Assembly: GCA_964016885.1 (NCBI GenBank)
Contig: OZ024742.1
Coordinates: 316,820,001 to 316,884,000, forward strand
Direction of reading: 5' to 3'
Length of the DNA stretch: 64,000 nt
From: Eledone cirrhosa
Taxonomy: Eukaryota
The first letter of the stretch is position 1; every line of letters starts with the position of its first letter. Shown here piece after piece: positions 40,631-60,499 of the stretch. The notes beneath the pieces were generated by a model that saw only the letters and a program-made list of their open reading frames with translations, did no database searches and had not been told where the DNA came from. The position numbers were made by a program, and so were the translations under genes.

Positions 40631-40659
40631 TTATGTATGTATATATACATATGGTTGCC

Positions 40660-40815
40660 TAGGTAATATGACGCATGGAGTTACGGCCCTTGCTATTCTG
40701 AGTTCAAATCCCGCCGAGGTTAACTTTGCCTTTCATCCTTACGGGGTCGATAAAATAAAGTACCAGTAATGTACTGGGTAATTGCTGGCCTTGTGCCAAA
40801 CGTAGAAACAATTAT
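40660..40815 (+). mobile_element. tRNA-derived SINE, partial
   Basis: B box GAGTTCAAATCC followed by the conserved core GCCTTTCATCCTT.CGGGGTCGATAAAATAAAGTACCAG; related copies at 45847 and 54245. Confidence 0.7.
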
Positions 40816-40911: not shown

Positions 40912-40954
<43 letters not shown>

Positions 40955-41108
40955 AATAAATGCTCTGAAATAGCGATATATATGTGAATATAGACATAGA
41001 ATATTCGAAAATATTCTGTATGTTTATAATAAACATTTTGAAGACCTAATCGCTATAGAATAGAATACGTCACGTATTACAATTAGATTCTCGACAAAAG
41101 CAAGGGAA

Positions 41109-41151
41109 GTAATCTACGCGTTTCATTCTTGTTAGAAATCTTCAGGACTAC
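41109..41151 (-). ncRNA. Minimal type I hammerhead ribozyme (also 41419-41461, 41729-41771, 42039-42081)
   Basis: Reverse complement of GTAGTC-CTGAAGA-T TTCT AACA AGAA T-GAAA-CGCG-TA-GATTAC. Confidence 0.85.
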
Positions 41152-42540
41152 ATATCCAGTGCTTTTATCGAGAATGACACAGCTAGAGACTTATAGAATA
41201 CTTAGCTGTGTACAGGAACTGGTTTGAAAGAGCGGTTGCCGGTCCGGCAGAAATTAGAAATTGGAATAAATGCTCTGAAATAGCGATATATATGTGAATA
41301 TAGACATAGAATATTCGAAAATATTCTGTATGTTTATAATAAACATTTTGAAGACCTAATCGCTATAGAATAGAATACGTCACGTATTACAATTAGATTC
41401 TCGACAAAAGCAAGGGAAGTAATCTACGCGTTTCATTCTTGTTAGAAATCTTCAGGACTACATATCCAGTGCTTTTATCGAGAATGACACAGCTAGAGAC
41501 TTATAGAATACTTAGCTGTGTACAGGAACTGGTTTGAAAGAGCGGTTGCCGGTCCGGCAGAAATTAGAAATTGGAATAAATGCTCTGAAATAGCGATATA
41601 TATGTGAATATAGACATAGAATATTCGAAAATATTCTGTATGTTTATAATAAACATTTTGAAGACCTAATCGCTATAGAATAGAATACGTCACGTATTAC
41701 AATTAGATTCTCGACAAAAGCAAGGGAAGTAATCTACGCGTTTCATTCTTGTTAGAAATCTTCAGGACTACATATCCAGTGCTTTTATCGAGAATGACAC
41801 AGCTAGAGACTTATAGAATACTTAGCTGTGTACAGGAACTGGTTTGAAAGAGCGGTTGCCGGTCCGGCAGAAATTAGAAATTGGAATAAATGCTCTGAAA
41901 TAGCGATATATATGTGAATATAGACATAGAATATTCGAAAATATTCTGTATGTTTATAATAAACATTTTAAAGACCTAATCGCTATAGAATAGAATACGT
42001 CACGTATTACAATTAGATTCTCGACAAAAGCAAGGGAAGTAATCTACGCGTTTCATTCTTGTTAGAAATCTTCAGGACTACATATCCAGTGCTTTTATCG
42101 AGAATGACACAGCTAGAGACTTATAGAATACTTAGCTGTGTACAGGAACTGGTTTGAAAGAGCGGTTGCCGGTCCGGCAGAAATTAGAAATTGGAATAAA
42201 TGCTCTGAAATAGCGATATATATGTGAATATAGACATAGAATATTCGAAAATATTCTGTATGTTTATAATAAACATTTTGAAGACCTAATCGCTATAGAA
42301 TAGAATACGTCACGTATTCTATTCTATAGCGATTAGGTCTTCAAAATGTTTATTATAAACATACAGAATATTTTCGAATATTCTATGTCTATATTCACAT
42401 ATATATCGCTATTTCAGAGCATTTATTCCAATTTCTAATTTCTGCCGGACCGGCAACCGCTCTTTCAAACCAGTTCCTGTACACAGCTAAGTATTCTATA
42501 AGTCTCTAGCTGTATCATTCTCGATAAAAGCACTGGATAT

Positions 42541-42583
42541 GTAGTCCTGAAGATTTCTAACAAGAATGAAACGCGTAGATTAC
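42541..42583 (+). ncRNA. Minimal type I hammerhead ribozyme (also 42851-42893, 43161-43203, 43470-43512, 43780-43822)
   Basis: Stem I GTAGTC/GATTAC; core CUGAAGA and GAAA; stem II TTCT/AGAA; palindromic stem III ACGCGT; GUA cleavage triplet (cut after 42577). Confidence 0.87.
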
Positions 42584-43987
42584 TTCCCTTGCTTTTGTCG
42601 AGAATCTAATTGTAATACGTCACGTATTCTATTCTATAGCGATTAGGTCTTCAAAATGTTTATTATAAACATACAGAATATTTTCGAATATTCTATGTCT
42701 ATATTCACATATATATCGCTATTTCAGAGCATTTATTCCAATTTCTAATTTCTGCCGGACCGGCAACCGCTCTTTCAAACCAGTTCCTGTACACAGCTAA
42801 GTATTCTATAAGTCTCTAGCTGTATCATTCTCGATAAAAGCACTGGATATGTAGTCCTGAAGATTTCTAACAAGAATGAAACGCGTAGATTACTTCCCTT
42901 GCTTTTGTCGAGAATCTAATTGTAATACGTGACGTATTCTATTCTATAGCGATTAGGTCTTCAAAATGTTTATTATAAACATACAGAATATTTTCGAATA
43001 TTCTATGTCTATATTCACATATATATCGCTATTTCAGAGCATTTATTCCAATTTCTAATTTCTGCCGGACCGGCAACCGCTCTTTCAAACCAGTTCCTGT
43101 ACACAGCTAAGTATTCTATAAGTCTCTAGCTGTGTCATTCTCGATAAAAGCACTGGATATGTAGTCCTGAAGATTTCTAACAAGAATGAAACGCGTAGAT
43201 TACTTCCCTTGCTTTTGTCGAGAATCTAATTGTAATACGTGACGTATTCTATTCTATAGCGATTAGGTCTTCAAAATGTTTATTATAAACATACAGAATA
43301 TTTTCGAATATTCTATGTCTATATTCACATATATATCGCTATTTCAGAGCATTTATTCCAATTTCTAATTTCTGCCGGCCGGCAACCGCTCTTTCAAACC
43401 AGTTCCTGTACACAGCTAAGTATTCTATAAGTCTCTAGCTGTGTCATTCTTGATAAAAGCACTGGATATGTAGTCCTGAAGATTTCTAACAAGAATGAAA
43501 CGCGTAGATTACTTCCCTTGCTTTTGTCGAGAATCTAATTGTAATACGTGACGTATTCTATTCTATAGCGATTAGGTCTTCAAAATGTTTATTATAAACA
43601 TACAGAATATTTTCGAATATTCTATGTCTATATTCACATATATATCGCTATTTCAGAGCATTTATTCCAATTTCTAATTTCTGCCGGACCGGCAACCGCT
43701 CTTTCAAACCAGTTCCTGTACACAGCTAAGTATTCTATAAGTCTCTAGCTGTGTCATTCTCGATAAAAGCACTGGATATGTAGTCCTGAAGATTTCTAAC
43801 AAGAATGAAACGCGTAGATTACTTCCCTTGCTTTTGTCGAGAATCTAATTGTAATACGTGACGTATTCTATTCTATAGCGATTAGGTCTTCAAAATGTTT
43901 ATTATAAACATACAGAATATTTTCGAATATTCTATGTCTATATTCACATATATATATTTATATATTAAGCGTATATATACATTCAAA

Positions 43988-47605: not shown

Positions 47606-47641
<36 letters not shown>

Positions 47642-48206
47642 GTTTAGCGAGGTTTTTTTATATGAAATCGTGTGTCGAAACAAATATTGTTATACTTGGG
47701 GAGGGTCATATTTGTGTAATATTGCCAGAATTAATAACAGAACACACTCACTGTTTGGTTGGTTTTCGCTTCTCGCTGTCTTTTATATCTGCGATCTAAC
47801 TTAATCGGTCCTCAATGTTGACATTGACTGACCGACGGTCAAAAATAATACAGATACAATATAGACACAAAGACATATATATATTTTACATAATTTACAT
47901 AAATCTTTCGTTGCACATCTGCAACATCGTCAGTGGTGTTATATTTTTTCCTCCTGTTGTGTTGTATGTCTACGCCATTTTTTATTCAGTCTGTCTATAT
48001 ATTTATTTATTTATTTGCTTGTTTGTTTATTTTATTTTGTCTTCTTTGCGCATGCGTTTGCGTGTGTGTATAGTGTCATGTTTGCTGTGTGACTAGTGTG
48101 TATAGTGTTGTGTCTGCTGGGTGACTAGTGTGTGTTTATGTGCTTGTTGTTATTGTGCTTGTGTATGTATTTATTTATCTTATTTTATTTTATTTTATTT
48201 ACTTAT

Positions 48207-48527
48207 TTATACTTCTCTTAGGTCAGTGTTGTTTGCTTGGGTGTTGTTGTTGTTCCACTCATTCTTTCTGTTTAGCTTTGGTCTTCTAATTTCTATTTCA
48301 CTGGCCTCTCTGATTTGTCTATCTGCTGGGTCATTCCTATGTTTAGATATTATTCTAATTTCTATGTTGTCTATGTTACCGTCATGTTGTTGCCTAGCAT
48401 GTTCGTATAGTACTGACCCGTTTTTTCGTCCTTTTAGTTCCCCCCAGTGTTGGTCTATCCTTTCACCTATGCTGCGAGCTGTTTCGCCTATGTATGTTGT
48501 TGTCATGTTTCTGCAAGTACCCTCTGT
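48207..48527 (-). pseudogene. GIY-YIG endonuclease fragment of Penelope-like element (left arm)
   Basis: TEGTCRNMTTTYIGETARSIGERIDQH...REASEIEIRRPKLNRKNEW. Confidence 0.8.
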
Positions 48528-48864
48528 CTATAGCATAAGATGTACAGAGGGTACTTGCAGAAACATGACAACAACATACATAGGCGAAACAGCTCGTAGC
48601 ATAGGTGAAAGGATAGACCAACACTGGGGGGAACTAAAAGGACGAAAAAACGGGTCAGTACTATACGAACATGCTAGGCAACAACATGACGGTAACATAG
48701 ACAACATAGAAATTAGAATAATATCTAAACATAGGAATGACCCAGCAGATAGGCAAATCAGAGAGGCCAGTGAAATAGAAATTAGAAGACCAAAGCTAAA
48801 CAGAAAGAATGAGTGGAACAACAACAACACCCAAACAAACAACACTGACCTAAGAGAAGTATAA
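48526..48864 (+). pseudogene. GIY-YIG endonuclease fragment of Penelope-like element (right arm)
   Basis: VYSIRC...C....YIGETAR...RIDQH...EH...E..EI....PKLN, the PLE-type GIY-YIG pattern. Confidence 0.85.
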
Positions 48865-49130
48865 ATAAGTAAATAAAATAAAATAAAATAAGATAAATAA
48901 ATACATACACAAGCACAATAACAACAAGCACATAAACACACACTAGTCACCCAGCAGACACAACACTATACACACTAGTCACACAGCAAACATGACACTA
49001 TACACACACGCAAACGCATGCGCAAAGAAGACAAAATAAAATAAACAAACAAGCAAATAAATAAATAAATATATAGACAGACTGAATAAAAAATGGCGTA
49101 GACATACAACACAACAGGAGGAAAAAATAT

Positions 49131-49175
49131 AACACCACTGACGATGTTGCAGATGTGCAACGAAAGATTTATGTA
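49131..49175 (+). ncRNA. Hammerhead-like motif in PLE 3' region (mirror copy ~47896-47940, minus strand)
   Basis: CTGACGA-T-GTTGCA GATG TGCAAC-GAAA-GATT-TA. Core and stem II are good but stem I is only ~2 bp, so it may be degenerate. Confidence 0.5.
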
Positions 49176-49379
49176 AATTATGTAAACTATATATATGTGT
49201 TTGTGTCTATATTGTATCTGTATTATTTTTGACCGTCGGTCAGTCAATGTCAACATTGAGGACCGAGTAAGTTAGATCGCAGATATAAAAGACAGCGAGA
49301 AGCGAAAACCAACCAAACAGTGAGTGTGTTCTGTTATTAATTCTGGCAATATTACACAAATATGACCCTCCCCAAGTAT

Positions 49380-49455
<76 letters not shown>

Positions 49456-55816: not shown

Positions 55817-56100
55817 TGATGTTGATGGCTGCCCCCTCATTATCAAGTATGGTCATTGCACGATATACTATTATTAATAATTAAGTTAAAGATGTACATC
55901 CATATATGTATACTGAAATACTAGTATGTATATGAATACACACACGTATACATATGTAGGTGTACCAAGTTTTTTCACTGGTCACTTTACTGTGAGTGGC
56001 CAGCTAGTCTGTATGTAAACACACAGACAAACCGGTTTTTAGAGTCATACTGGTTTTTGAGGAAACACCTCTCCTCTATTCTCCAGAAAGCCAGACAAGG

Positions 56101-56145
56101 AATATTGAACTAGTTTCGTTGTTGTTACAACTCATCAGCAATATT
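56101..56145 (-). ncRNA. Minimal type I hammerhead ribozyme (also 56568-56612, 57035-57079, 57502-57546, 57969-58013)
   Basis: Reverse complement of AATATTG-CTGATGA-GTTG TAACAA CAAC-GAAA-CTAG-TT-CAATATT. Confidence 0.9.
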
Positions 56146-58698
56146 TACCTATCTTCCGGCCTCTCTAGAGAATCGTAAAAGCACATATCGTTATATGCTT
56201 TTTCTATGAAAATTAGTAGTGGGCAGACTAATTTGCATAGAGTGTGAGTAAGTACCGGTTCAACAGAGACGATAAAAACAAATAACGAAACGAAATTAAA
56301 TTTCGTTTCGTTTGTAACTCACTTTTGTATGACTGACGCTTAAACAATTAAGTTAAAGATGTACATCCATATATGTATACTGAAATACTAGTATGTATAT
56401 GAATACACACACGTATACATATGTAGGTGTACCAAGTTTTTTCACTGGTCACTTTACTGTGAGTGGCCAGCTAGTCTGTATGTAAACACACAGACAAACC
56501 GGTTTTTAGAGTCATACTGGTTTTTGAGGAAACACCTCTCCTCTATTCTCCAGAAAGCCAGACAAGGAATATTGAACTAGTTTCGTTGTTGTTACAACTC
56601 ATCAGCAATATTTACCTATCTTCCGGCCTCTCTAGAGAATCGTAAAAGCACATATCGTTATATGCTTTTTCTATGAAAATTAGTAGTGGGCAGACTAATT
56701 TGCATAGAGTGTGAGTAAGTACCGGTTCAACAGAGACGATAAAAACAAATAACGAAACGAAATTAAATTTCGTTTCGTTTGTAACTCACTTTTGTATGAC
56801 TGACGCTTAAACAATTAAGTTAAAGATGTACATCCATATATGTATACTGAAATACTAGTATGTATATGAATACACACACGTATACATATGTAGGTGTACC
56901 AAGTTTTTTCACTGGTCACTTTACTGTGAGTGGCCAGCTAGTCTGTATGTAAACACACAGACAAACCGGTTTTTAGAGTCATACTGGTTTTTGAGGAAAC
57001 ACCTCTCCTCTATTCTCCAGAAAGCCAGACAAGGAATATTGAACTAGTTTCGTTGTTGTTACAACTCATCAGCAATATTTACCTATCTTCCGGCCTCTCT
57101 AGAGAATCGTAAAAGCACATATCGTTATATGCTTTTTCTATGAAAATTAGTAGTGGGCAGACTAATTTGCATAGAGTGTGAGTAAGTACCGGTTCAACAG
57201 AGACGATAAAAACAAATAACGAAACGAAATTAAATTTCGTTTCGTTTGTAACTCACTTTTGTATGACTGACGCTTAAACAATTAAGTTAAAGATGTACAT
57301 CCATATATGTATACTGAAATACTAGTATGTATATGAATACACACACGTATACATATGTAGGTGTACCAAGTTTTTTCACTGGTCACTTTACTGTGAGTGG
57401 CCAGCTAGTCTGTATGTAAACACACAGACAAACCGGTTTTTAGAGTCATACTGGTTTTTGAGGAAACACCTCTCCTCTATTCTCCAGAAAGCCAGACAAG
57501 GAATATTGAACTAGTTTCGTTGTTGTTACAACTCATCAGCAATATTTACCTATCTTCCGGCCTCTCTAGAGAATCGTAAAAGCACATATCGTTATATGCT
57601 TTTTCTATGAAAATTAGTAGTGGGCAGACGAATTTGCATAGAGTGTGAGTAAGTACCGGTTCAACAGAGACGATAAAAACAAATAACGAAACGAAATTAA
57701 ATTTCGTTTCGTTTGTAACTCACTTTTGTATGACTGACGCTTAAACAATTAAGTTAAAGATGTACATCCATATATGTATACTGAAATACTAGTATGTATA
57801 TGAATACACACACGTATACATATGTAGGTGTACCAAGTTTTTTCACTGGTCACTTTACTGTGAGTGGCCGGCTAGTCTGTATGTAAACACACAGACAAAC
57901 CGGTTTTTAGAGTCATACTGGTTTTTGAGGAAACACCTCTCCTCTATTCTCCAGAAAGCCAGACAAGGAATATTGAACTAGTTTCGTTGTTGTTACAACT
58001 CATCAGCAATATTTACCTATCTTCCGGCCTCTCTAGAGAATCGTAAAAGCACATATCGTTATATGCTTTTTCTATGAAAATTAGTAGTGGGCAGACGAAT
58101 TTGCATAGAGTGTGAGTAAGTACCGGTTCAACAGAGACGATAAAAACAAATAACGAAACGAAATTAAATTTCGTTTCGTTTGTAACTCACTTTTGTATGA
58201 CTGACGCTTAAACAATTAAGTTAAAGATGTACATCCATATATGTATACTGAAATACTAGTATGTATATGAATACACACACGTATACATATGTAGGTGTAC
58301 CAAGTTTTTTCACTGGTCACTTTACTGTGAGTGGCCGGCTAGTCTGTATGTAAACACACAGACAAACCGGTTTTTAGAGTCATACTGGTTTTTGACCAGT
58401 GAAAAAACTTGGTACACCTACATATGTATACGTGTGTGTATTCATATACATACTAGTATTTCAGTATACATATATGGATGTACATCTTTAACTTAATTGT
58501 TTAAGCGTCAGTCATACAAAAGTGAGTTACAAACGAAACGAAATTTAATTTCGTTTCGTTATTTGTTTTTATCGTCTCTGTTGAACCGGTACTTACTCAC
58601 ACTCTATGCAAATTAGTCTGCCCACTACTAATTTTCATAGAAAAAGCATATAACGATATGTGCTTTTACGATTCTCTAGAGAGGCCGGAAGATAGGTA

Positions 58699-58743
58699 AA
58701 TATTGCTGATGAGTTGTAACAACAACGAAACTAGTTCAATATT
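58699..58743 (+). ncRNA. Minimal type I hammerhead ribozyme (also 59166-59210, 59633-59677, 60100-60144)
   Basis: Stem I AATATTG/CAATATT; CUGAUGA; stem II GTTG/CAAC; GAAA; palindromic stem III ACTAGT; GUU triplet (cut after 58736). Confidence 0.92.
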
Positions 58744-60499
58744 CCTTGTCTGGCTTTCTGGAGAATAGAGGAGAGGTGTTTCCTCAAAAACCAGTATGAC
58801 TCTAAAAACCGGTTTGTCTGTGTGTTTACATACAGACTAGCTGGCCACTCACAGTAAAGTGACCAGTGAAAAAACTTGGTACACCTACATATGTATACGT
58901 GTGTGTATTCATATACATACTAGTATTTCAGTATACATATATGGATGTACATCTTTAACTTAATTGTTTAAGCGTCAGTCATACAAAAGTGAGTTACAAA
59001 CGAAACGAAATTTAATTTCGTTTCGTTATTTGTTTTTATCGTCTCTGTTGAACCGGTACTTACTCACACTCTATGCAAATTAGTCTGCCCACTACTAATT
59101 TTCATAGAAAAAGCATATAACGATATGTGCTTTTACGATTCTCTAGAGAGGCCGGAAGATAGGTAAATATTGCTGATGAGTTGTAACAACAACGAAACTA
59201 GTTCAATATTCCTTGTCTGGCTTTCTGGAGAATAGAGGAGAGGTGTTTCCTCAAAAACCAGTATGACTCTAAAAACCGGTTTGTCTGTGTGTTTACATAC
59301 AGACTAGCTGGCCACTCACAGTAAAGTGACCAGTGAAAAAACTTGGTACACCTACATATGTATACGTGTGTGTATTCATATACATACTAGTATTTCAGTA
59401 TACATATATGGATGTACATCTTTAACTTAATTGTTTAAGCGTCAGTCATACAAAAGTGAGTTACAAACGAAACGAAATTTAATTTCGTTTCGTTATTTGT
59501 TTTTATCGTCTCTGTTGAACCGGTACTTACTCACACTCTATGCAAATTAGTCTGCCCACTACTAATTTTCATAGAAAAAGCATATAACGATATGTGCTTT
59601 TACGATTCTCTAGAGAGGCCGGAAGATAGGTAAATATTGCTGATGAGTTGTAACAACAACGAAACTAGTTCAATATTCCTTGTCTGGCTTTCTGGAGAAT
59701 AGAGGAGAGGTGTTTCCTCAAAAACCAGTATGACTCTAAAAACCGGTTTGTCTGTGTGTTTACATACAGACTAGCTGGCCACTCACAGTAAAGTGACCAG
59801 TGAAAAAACTTGGTACACCTACATATGTATACGTGTGTGTATTCATATACATACTAGTATTTCAGTATACATATATGGATGTACATCTTTAACTTAATTG
59901 TTTAAGCGTCAGTCATACAAAAGTGAGTTACAAACGAAACGAAATTTAATTTCGTTTCGTTATTTGTTTTTATCGTCTCTGTTGAACCGGTACTTACTCA
60001 CACTCTATGCAAATTAGTCTGCCCACTACTAATTTTCATAGAAAAAGCATATAACGATATGTGCTTTTACGATTCTCTAGAGAGGCCGGAAGATAGGTAA
60101 ATATTGCTGATGAGTTGTAACAACAACGAAACTAGTTCAATATTCCTTGTCTGGCTTTCTGGAGAATAGAGGAGAGGTGTTTCCTCAAAAACCAGTATGA
60201 CTCTAAAAACCGGTTTGTCTGTGTGTTTACATACAGACTAGCTGGCCACTCACAGTAAAGTGACCAGTGAAAAAACTTGGTACACCTACATATGTATACG
60301 TGTGTGTATTCATATACATACTAGTATTTCAGTATACATATATGGATGTACATCTTTAACTTAATTGTTTAAGCGTCAGTCATACAAAAGTGAGTTACAA
60401 ACGAAACGAAATTTAATTTCGTTTCGTTATTTGTTTCTATTATTAATAATTATTGATTAATTCTATCGTGCAATGCCTGTGCGTGAAGATTTTTTTTAA

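Follow-up and report, generated by a model that had tools for sequence, protein, structure and literature searches.

A 310-bp tandem array in the genome of Eledone cirrhosa inverts at a single base inside a short palindrome of its own unit, which raises the question of whether that hairpin produced the inversion. The array occupies 40955-43955 of the window, by which we mean the whole 64,000-nt stretch analysed here, and TRF resolves it into 4.4 + 5.3 copies of the unit at 99%. The initial annotation proposed that a nascent cDNA had snapped back on a 7-bp hairpin and primed its own copy, as in hairpin-primed replication. Features are given below in window positions; unit numbering sets 42924 as 1, so that the loop base is 8, the hammerhead core 244-274 and the predicted cut after 274.

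40915..40954, no strand: left part of the (TA)n target, AT x18.5
40955..42311, minus: left arm, 4.4 units with 4 hammerhead motifs, 3' end outward
42304..42318, no strand: apex, hairpin AATACGT-N-ACGTATT, a possible 7+7 nt homology between two same-sense cDNAs
42312..43955, plus: right arm, 5.3 units with 5 hammerhead motifs, 3' end outward
42312..42621, plus: first right-arm unit, apparent tandem duplicate (211A twice; apex-type C again at 42621)
42326..42440, plus: long stem-loop, unit 23-110, whose 3' side contains site A at about 42395-42406; site B follows downstream
42518..42605, plus: type I hammerhead, one of nine, core CUGAAGA at 42547, predicted cut after 42577
43956..43980, no strand: right part of the AT-rich target
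47640-49387, both arms: palindrome of a 5'-truncated Penelope-like element (PLE), 844-nt arms, 16-nt spacer
55876-60440, both arms: 467-bp hammerhead array, tail-out inverted, ends at 106 and 176

The nine hammerhead cores of the initial annotation, four minus and five plus, were all located. CTGAnGA...GAAA occurs at 41145, 41455, 41765 and 42075 on the minus strand and at 42547, 42857, 43167, 43476 and 43786 on the plus strand, so that each tandem unit carries one type I motif with three stems (9 cores in 9 full units). The inversion at 42311 within AATACGT-C-ACGTATT was also found as described, and its apex base C comes from the left (B-type) arm. The reported near-perfect palindrome of ~2.7 kb stands in extent: 41244-42310 pairs with 42312-43378 with 4 mismatches, and the mirror continues to 43666, about 2.7 kb. 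It is not a clean mirror, being interrupted by 211A, 8C and a 1-nt deletion at about 43379. The proposed 1-nt hairpin loop cannot form; the predicted cDNA hairpin at the apex has 6 bp and a 3-nt loop (-2.7 kcal/mol), and two other hairpins of the unit reach -4.1 and -3.0.

As assembled, the right arm exceeds the left by one unit. Right-arm units 1 and 2 both have 211A, and unit 2 has the apex-type C (8C) at 42621, which no other sense copy of the genome carries. The simplest account that this repeat suggests is that one unit, beginning in the apex, was duplicated, either in the genome or through an assembly error; if the duplication came later, the insertion originally had 4+4 units. The variants 39T, 211A, 146del and 219T each lack a mirror copy in the other arm and, because the arms have no variant in common, this locus cannot discriminate between models. 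Neither a strand-switch joint nor coverage of 42621 was obtained among contigs from public runs; those from sample S1, possibly the material behind the assembly, carry the family's alleles and have A and B ends joined to TA. By itself the locus is one ordinary copy of a known class, and the value lies in the statistics of its family, which make a paired-priming model directly testable.

The motif places the predicted cut after 42577 (GUA), in agreement with the initial annotation. In the hammerhead at 42518..42605 stem I is extended, stem II has U.U at its base and an AACA loop, and stem III is formed by 2 bp within the palindrome ACGCGU; the core sequence is CUGA(A/U)GA. Rfam at gathering scores returned no match in the window, and the assignment rests on motif plus fold. 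In the axolotl HHR_Amex2, too, helix II has a U.U pair at its base and helix III is 2 bp long, and an axolotl retrozyme hammerhead with this helix II base is described as weakly active, with activity enhanced in the dimer (PMC7229834). At the 14 core positions we counted 0/45 locus-wide alleles against 9/164 private changes; as a sign of purifying selection on the ribozyme core, this difference did not reach significance (p 0.21). A locus-wide change that appears as a one-base insertion just after unit position 276 was seen at L082, L111, L121, L191, L200 and L207 (C) and at L117 and L132 (T), and also in run contigs; it is offset by two bases from the predicted cut, beside the actual junction, and is possibly tied to ligation.

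The 310-nt unit has 34.5% GC and its monomer folds with a z of -3.95. The array contains no ATG ORF of at least 40 aa; the only two run into the TA flanks. It also lacks the RT plus GIY-YIG ORF expected of an autonomous Penelope-like element. By sequence criteria (a non-coding unit in the range of about 170-400 nt and below 45% GC) the family can be classed as a young non-LTR retrozyme. Like the animal non-LTR retrozymes described by Cervera and de la Pena 2020 (PMC7229834) and by Li, Clavereau and Pollet 2026 (10.64898/2026.07.22.740005), it is built of tandem units of ~300 nt that are low in GC, do not code for protein and carry a single type I hammerhead, and it is dispersed as dimers to multimers, with arms that reach 26 units or more. 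It differs from those published in being a new sequence family. The identity of units within a locus fits a circular RNA and equally a uniform multimer. In the literature searched, of which coverage is incomplete, we found no retrozyme description for octopus.

Genome-wide we found at least 1,236 exact B-end matches to the family (3.0 Gb assembly). The 173 insertions examined comprise 37 picked by similarity, 95 by B end, 20 by A end (loci without a listed B end) and 21 by hairpin apex, the last including the locus at 40955-43955; one further hairpin-apex match was already in this count. These insertions sit in (TA)n. Two complete arms were present in 144/173 and one arm only in 16/173; a further 13/173 are cut by a gap or fetch edge, or have an end unseen or missing. 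Statistics on length, junctions and haplotypes use 107 simple two-arm loci, or 102 without five that were hairpin-picked, and leave aside complex joins, truncated loci, L050, L080, L083 and L214. Since private changes amount to only 4.1e-4 per base, the copies are very young.

The inversion is shared across the family and the turn-around point is not. The initial annotation had suggested checking whether other copies invert at the same hairpin: 0/37 similarity-picked loci do so, and AATACGT-N-ACGTATT is the turn at 6 loci genome-wide, the one at 42304..42318 and 5 others, against about 0.2 expected per 1,236 insertions, an expectation that assumes independent inner ends. Two other unit hairpins serve as turn points, 62-81 at 6 loci and 43-59 at 10, which brings the three hairpins together to 22 loci. 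On these counts the apex hairpin is a modest hot spot, not chance. Otherwise inner ends are uniform over the unit, as is the inner-end offset (KS p 0.43, 102 simple loci). In the same 102 loci arm lengths are nearly independent (Spearman 0.16, p 0.11) and either arm may be the longer (44 vs 55). Near-equal arms, within 50 nt, occur in 8/102 against 3.6 expected (p 0.024), and in 7/8 of these the B arm is equal or longer. Joins have a mean microhomology of 1.81 nt (75 joins) versus a null of 0.75, a value reached in 0 of 200,000 draws, and 27/102 joins hold inserted bases. As far as the genomic copies go, the family shows fold-back to be its normal shape and one not set by the apex hairpin. Run-off at cleaved monomer ends was considered as the usual stop and rejected, as inner ends lie within 5 nt of the ribozyme cut in 4/204; L035 is one possible case of a stop there.

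The outer ends follow a near-strict rule. They fall at site A (unit 82-103) or site B (121-136), and 143/144 complete two-arm loci have one of each, with 0 AA and 0 BB. The rule holds however the loci were picked: 85/85 via the B end, 14/14 via the A end and 44/45 independently of end type. The sole exception, L050, has B plus another site; the 11-nt B arm of L243 was read by eye, and L246 is perhaps a second assembly copy of L098. At 40955-43955 the left arm ends at unit position 124, of the site B class, with a tail, and the right arm at 103, of the site A class, without one, which gives a tail of 21 nt (124 vs 103). In this locus site B corresponds to about 42427-42439, 26-40 nt downstream of site A, and the A/B stretch is among the best-conserved parts of the unit in a 321-bp sister family. 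The A/B offset is the one-sided 'tail' of Penelope elements. Because the target at L039 is not pure TA, a target duplication can be read there; elsewhere in the 310-bp family it would be hidden in the microsatellite. Read by eye, duplications are also present at the window's 467-bp copy and at L151.

The same pairing recurs in related elements of this genome. The 467-bp family pairs ends of the A+B type (106/180) in 15/16 two-arm loci, L150 being a possible exception; the 321-bp sister family has paired ends at homologous sites in 8/8 distinct loci with both ends resolved; and an RT/GIY-YIG element obeys the rule in 16/17 inverted pairs (L167-L186), the exception being L182. The GIY-YIG and Neptune-like labels of that element are ones we assume from motifs.

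The two arms of a locus also share their haplotype. Among loci with arms of at least 2 units, 61/63 carry the same locus-wide haplotype in both; we distinguished 26 haplotypes, and permutation gave a mean of 7.1 and a maximum of 21. Shared haplotypes include alleles unique to one locus. L129 has arms of 3 and 17.7 units, and each of them shows a haplotype switch, defined by three sites, at a depth of two units from its outer end. L108 and L256 each have a one-unit variant common to both arms in the same outer register. Out of the outer register are 4/7 shared one-unit variants (L045 by -1 unit, L109 by -2, L225 by +1, L224 far off), that of L225 being mirrored about its hairpin apex. A two-unit variant of L189 is confined to a single arm. 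The register cases are suggestive of a single template, being few and not decisive, and arm-to-arm gene conversion could be the source of any shared one-unit variant.

A shared haplotype is what would be expected if one target-primed cDNA folded on its own hairpin or microhomology and copied itself, the copy then being joined to the other flank at a second site. Hairpin apexes are enriched (6, 6, 10), near-equal arms are in excess with B slightly longer, as a B-first version predicts, and the mirrored variant of L225 has its loop from the longer arm. The locus at 40955-43955 would join these cases as 4+4 units, and could have arisen in this way only if its extra right-arm unit is a later duplication, as the 8C/211A repeat suggests. 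A copy cannot outgrow its template, whereas in this family the longer arm may be A or B. A folding cDNA must supply its own loop base, and a loop from the shorter arm therefore contradicts snap-back. Such wrong donors account for 6/14 scorable hairpin apexes: L070, L072, L233, L236, L238 and the 40955-43955 locus as assembled, with L070, L072 and L238 being single-unit palindromes. The other 8/14 are compatible with snap-back, and 8/22 hairpin apexes are unscored, being rearranged or with arm identity unseen; later loop flip or assembly polishing could blur the test. In L108 the A arm is 44 nt longer inside and the B arm 26 nt longer outside, snap-back offers no reason for an A-first copy always to stop at B, and 39T, 211A, 146del and 219T are not mirrored. 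We regard a snap-back origin of the family as decidedly unlikely. Of the initial annotation, the placement of the apex at a hairpin holds up as non-random, and snap-back as the mode of the family goes mostly unsupported. Hairpin-primed replication in particular is not supported, given that other hairpins are used as often (6, 10), either arm may be longer and 6/14 loop donors are wrong. As in parvoviruses, which replicate by rolling hairpin, fold-back on self-complementary DNA gives a long palindrome; parvoviruses use one fixed terminal hairpin, and the 310-bp family has no fixed turn-around hairpin, with 6 loci among more than 1,200 at the apex hairpin.

Two independent primings on different RNAs, with the target strand setting A or B and one dominant transcript or circle per cell, would fit the A+B rule, independent lengths, microhomology and mixed loop donors equally well, and would fit the out-of-register variants of L045 and L109. 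It would demand that one of at least 26 haplotypes dominate each cell, and it leaves the L129 switch at equal depth in both arms unexplained; we think it improbable. Rearrangement after insertion (a cruciform break with fold-back repair) or misassembly of a tandem array would have to produce outer ends that are, on both sides, the specific family ends in (TA)n, in a form seen in 144 complete loci whose apexes vary among loci and whose two flanks differ. The duplicated unit beside the apex may be an event of this kind, like the apex repeats in L047 and L075, and public-run contigs gave no read-level support for the 42311 apex. As an account of the inversion we hold this to be highly improbable. 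In L047, L075, L043 and L222, apex-type junctions or private variants recur several units apart within an arm, which suggests that templates were multimeric or that units were duplicated later.

The reading that we prefer, and think likely, is that a young retrozyme was inserted by a Penelope-like (RT plus GIY-YIG) enzyme priming two cDNAs on one RNA. The enzyme would cut both strands of a (TA)n tract, and two cDNAs would be primed on one RNA, one from each target end. A circular or uncleaved multimeric template would let each RT run several units. In an enzyme dimer one active site would start at A and the other at B, with a usual spacing of about 35 nt, and each RT would travel an independent distance. 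Having the same polarity, the cDNAs could pair only at short inverted homology, head to head, with each annealed cDNA serving as template for the second strand of the other. If both came to a stop near the same point of the template, a self-complementary stretch would be the sole homology left to join them, which would make unit hairpins modest hot spots (22 loci). In our best model the hairpin merely provides homology for joining two cDNAs. On this evidence the arrays look to have been formed at insertion and not by later unequal crossover.

All support for paired priming comes from genome sequence. Against it count the out-of-register variants, the one-arm insertions (16/173) and the near-equal-arm excess (8/102), although this last fits paired priming and fits a minority snap-back route too. 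As regards a partner element, comparison of the 310 unit with the 3'-terminal 620 nt of one PLE family showed no resemblance, and a search with the older 321-bp sister unit returned sister copies only, with no partner PLE.

L1 twin priming, attributed to Ostertag and Kazazian (2001), is reportedly similar in that a single RNA is copied from both target ends and the result is an inversion joined by microhomology. In L1 this reportedly accounts for a minority of events, the second site is internal and random, and the arms do not overlap on the RNA. In the 310-bp family inversion is the rule, both sites are fixed and the arms cover the same units.

Insertions of endonuclease-bearing PLEs offer the closer parallel. 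They share with the 310-bp family an inverted, 5'-truncated copy located at the 5' end, a (TA)n target and junction palindromes or microhomology (PMC8557442, PMC3846280), as well as a 30-40-bp tail at one end only; unlike PLEs, the 310-bp family has no ORF. Formation of the inverted copy and one-sided tail has been called undefined (Craig et al. 2021, PMC8557442), and self-priming at palindromic junctions has been proposed for Penelope elements (Arkhipova et al. 2013, PMC3846280). In these papers the tail is optional or often one-sided and the inversion unexplained or self-primed, whereas the 310-bp family is near-strict in having one A, one B and one haplotype. In vitro, Penelope protein cuts AT-rich DNA and extends both strands (Frangieh et al. 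2024, PMC11167929). It has two internal start sites flanking the tail and works with RNA that is uncleaved, and a dimeric form is predicted (PMC11167929). The same authors found the start site alike on both strands and concluded ordinary second-strand synthesis (PMC11167929), a conclusion that counts against paired priming. Judged by its genomic copies, the 310-bp family works like a Penelope insertion and is neither an autonomous PLE nor a hairpin-primed replicon.

Going further, Penelope-type integration in general may be obligate paired priming, in which a dimer primes both ends of a double-strand cut on one RNA, its subunits always at A and B, and the cDNAs prime each other's second strand; we lean towards this by a little. 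If true, this one rule would account for inverted 5' copy, one-sided tail and junction palindromes alike, and a retrozyme array would represent several rounds of reverse transcription around a circle, made at insertion. The literature searched, with incomplete coverage and supplements aside, yielded no statement of obligate paired priming for PLEs. Mobilisation of retrozymes by PLEs has already been proposed (Li, Clavereau and Pollet 2026, 10.64898/2026.07.22.740005), and the available parts of that work and of PMC7229834, supplements aside, describe no inverted arms, tail or paired ends for retrozymes. A+B pairing and a shared haplotype support such mobilisation by PLE enzymes through insertion anatomy, not phylogeny. 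The 310-bp family is thus a large, very young, haplotype-marked record of Penelope-type integration, and its strict A+B pairing with a shared haplotype makes a precise prediction for the in vitro assay already established (PMC11167929).

The window holds two further inverted elements. In the 467-bp array at 55876-60440 the arms are separated by a 73-nt spacer with 3-nt microhomology, and the target duplication is about 11-16 nt (CTATTATTAAT...). Family ends at 106/180 give a tail of roughly 74 nt, about twice the usual length. The initial annotation saw no likeness between the 310- and 467-bp units outside the ribozyme core; the 3' strand of stem I is also alike (63 columns, score 33 vs 20.6 +/- 2.6, 0/500 shuffles), and the status of the 310-bp unit as an independent family stands. 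The PLE palindrome at 47640-49387, a truncated copy of the RT/GIY-YIG element above with a GIY-YIG-like C-terminus, has a tail on the left only, lies within (TA)n and carries a hammerhead-like motif at 49138 and 47933. Family copies of this element have open frames of more than 1,000 aa with an Asn-rich stretch (L169-L175). A 1,054-aa ORF gave only a weak Pfam RT match (RVT_1, E 2e-4, below cut-off), and a PDB sequence search returned nothing significant.

Runs matching the 310 unit numbered 20 in 17 studies, at 67-97% of words and under 18 organism labels; RNA runs were absent from those listed. Three runs with other labels (X3, X7, X4) gave one low-depth circular contig each, which is not host-range evidence. 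A near-identical unit under 18 labels could reflect relatives, contamination or transfer.

The 321-bp sister retrozyme family (L189 3262-4060, L260-L279) is older and colinear with the 310 unit, with 1,896 first-look candidates and 92-95% between copies. In an aligned sister copy hammerhead position 3 is U and position 8 is A, which we take to be a paired change of the C3-G8 contact, a known variant. Near 40650-40800 lies a putative SINE motif of octopod type. Window positions 1-36000 hold about six head-to-tail copies of a 6.06-kb non-LTR retrotransposon, presumably Tx1/L1-like, each adjoining an (ATT)n tract; it has a 701-aa frame and a 1,195-aa frame in which endonuclease and RT motifs were recognized by eye.
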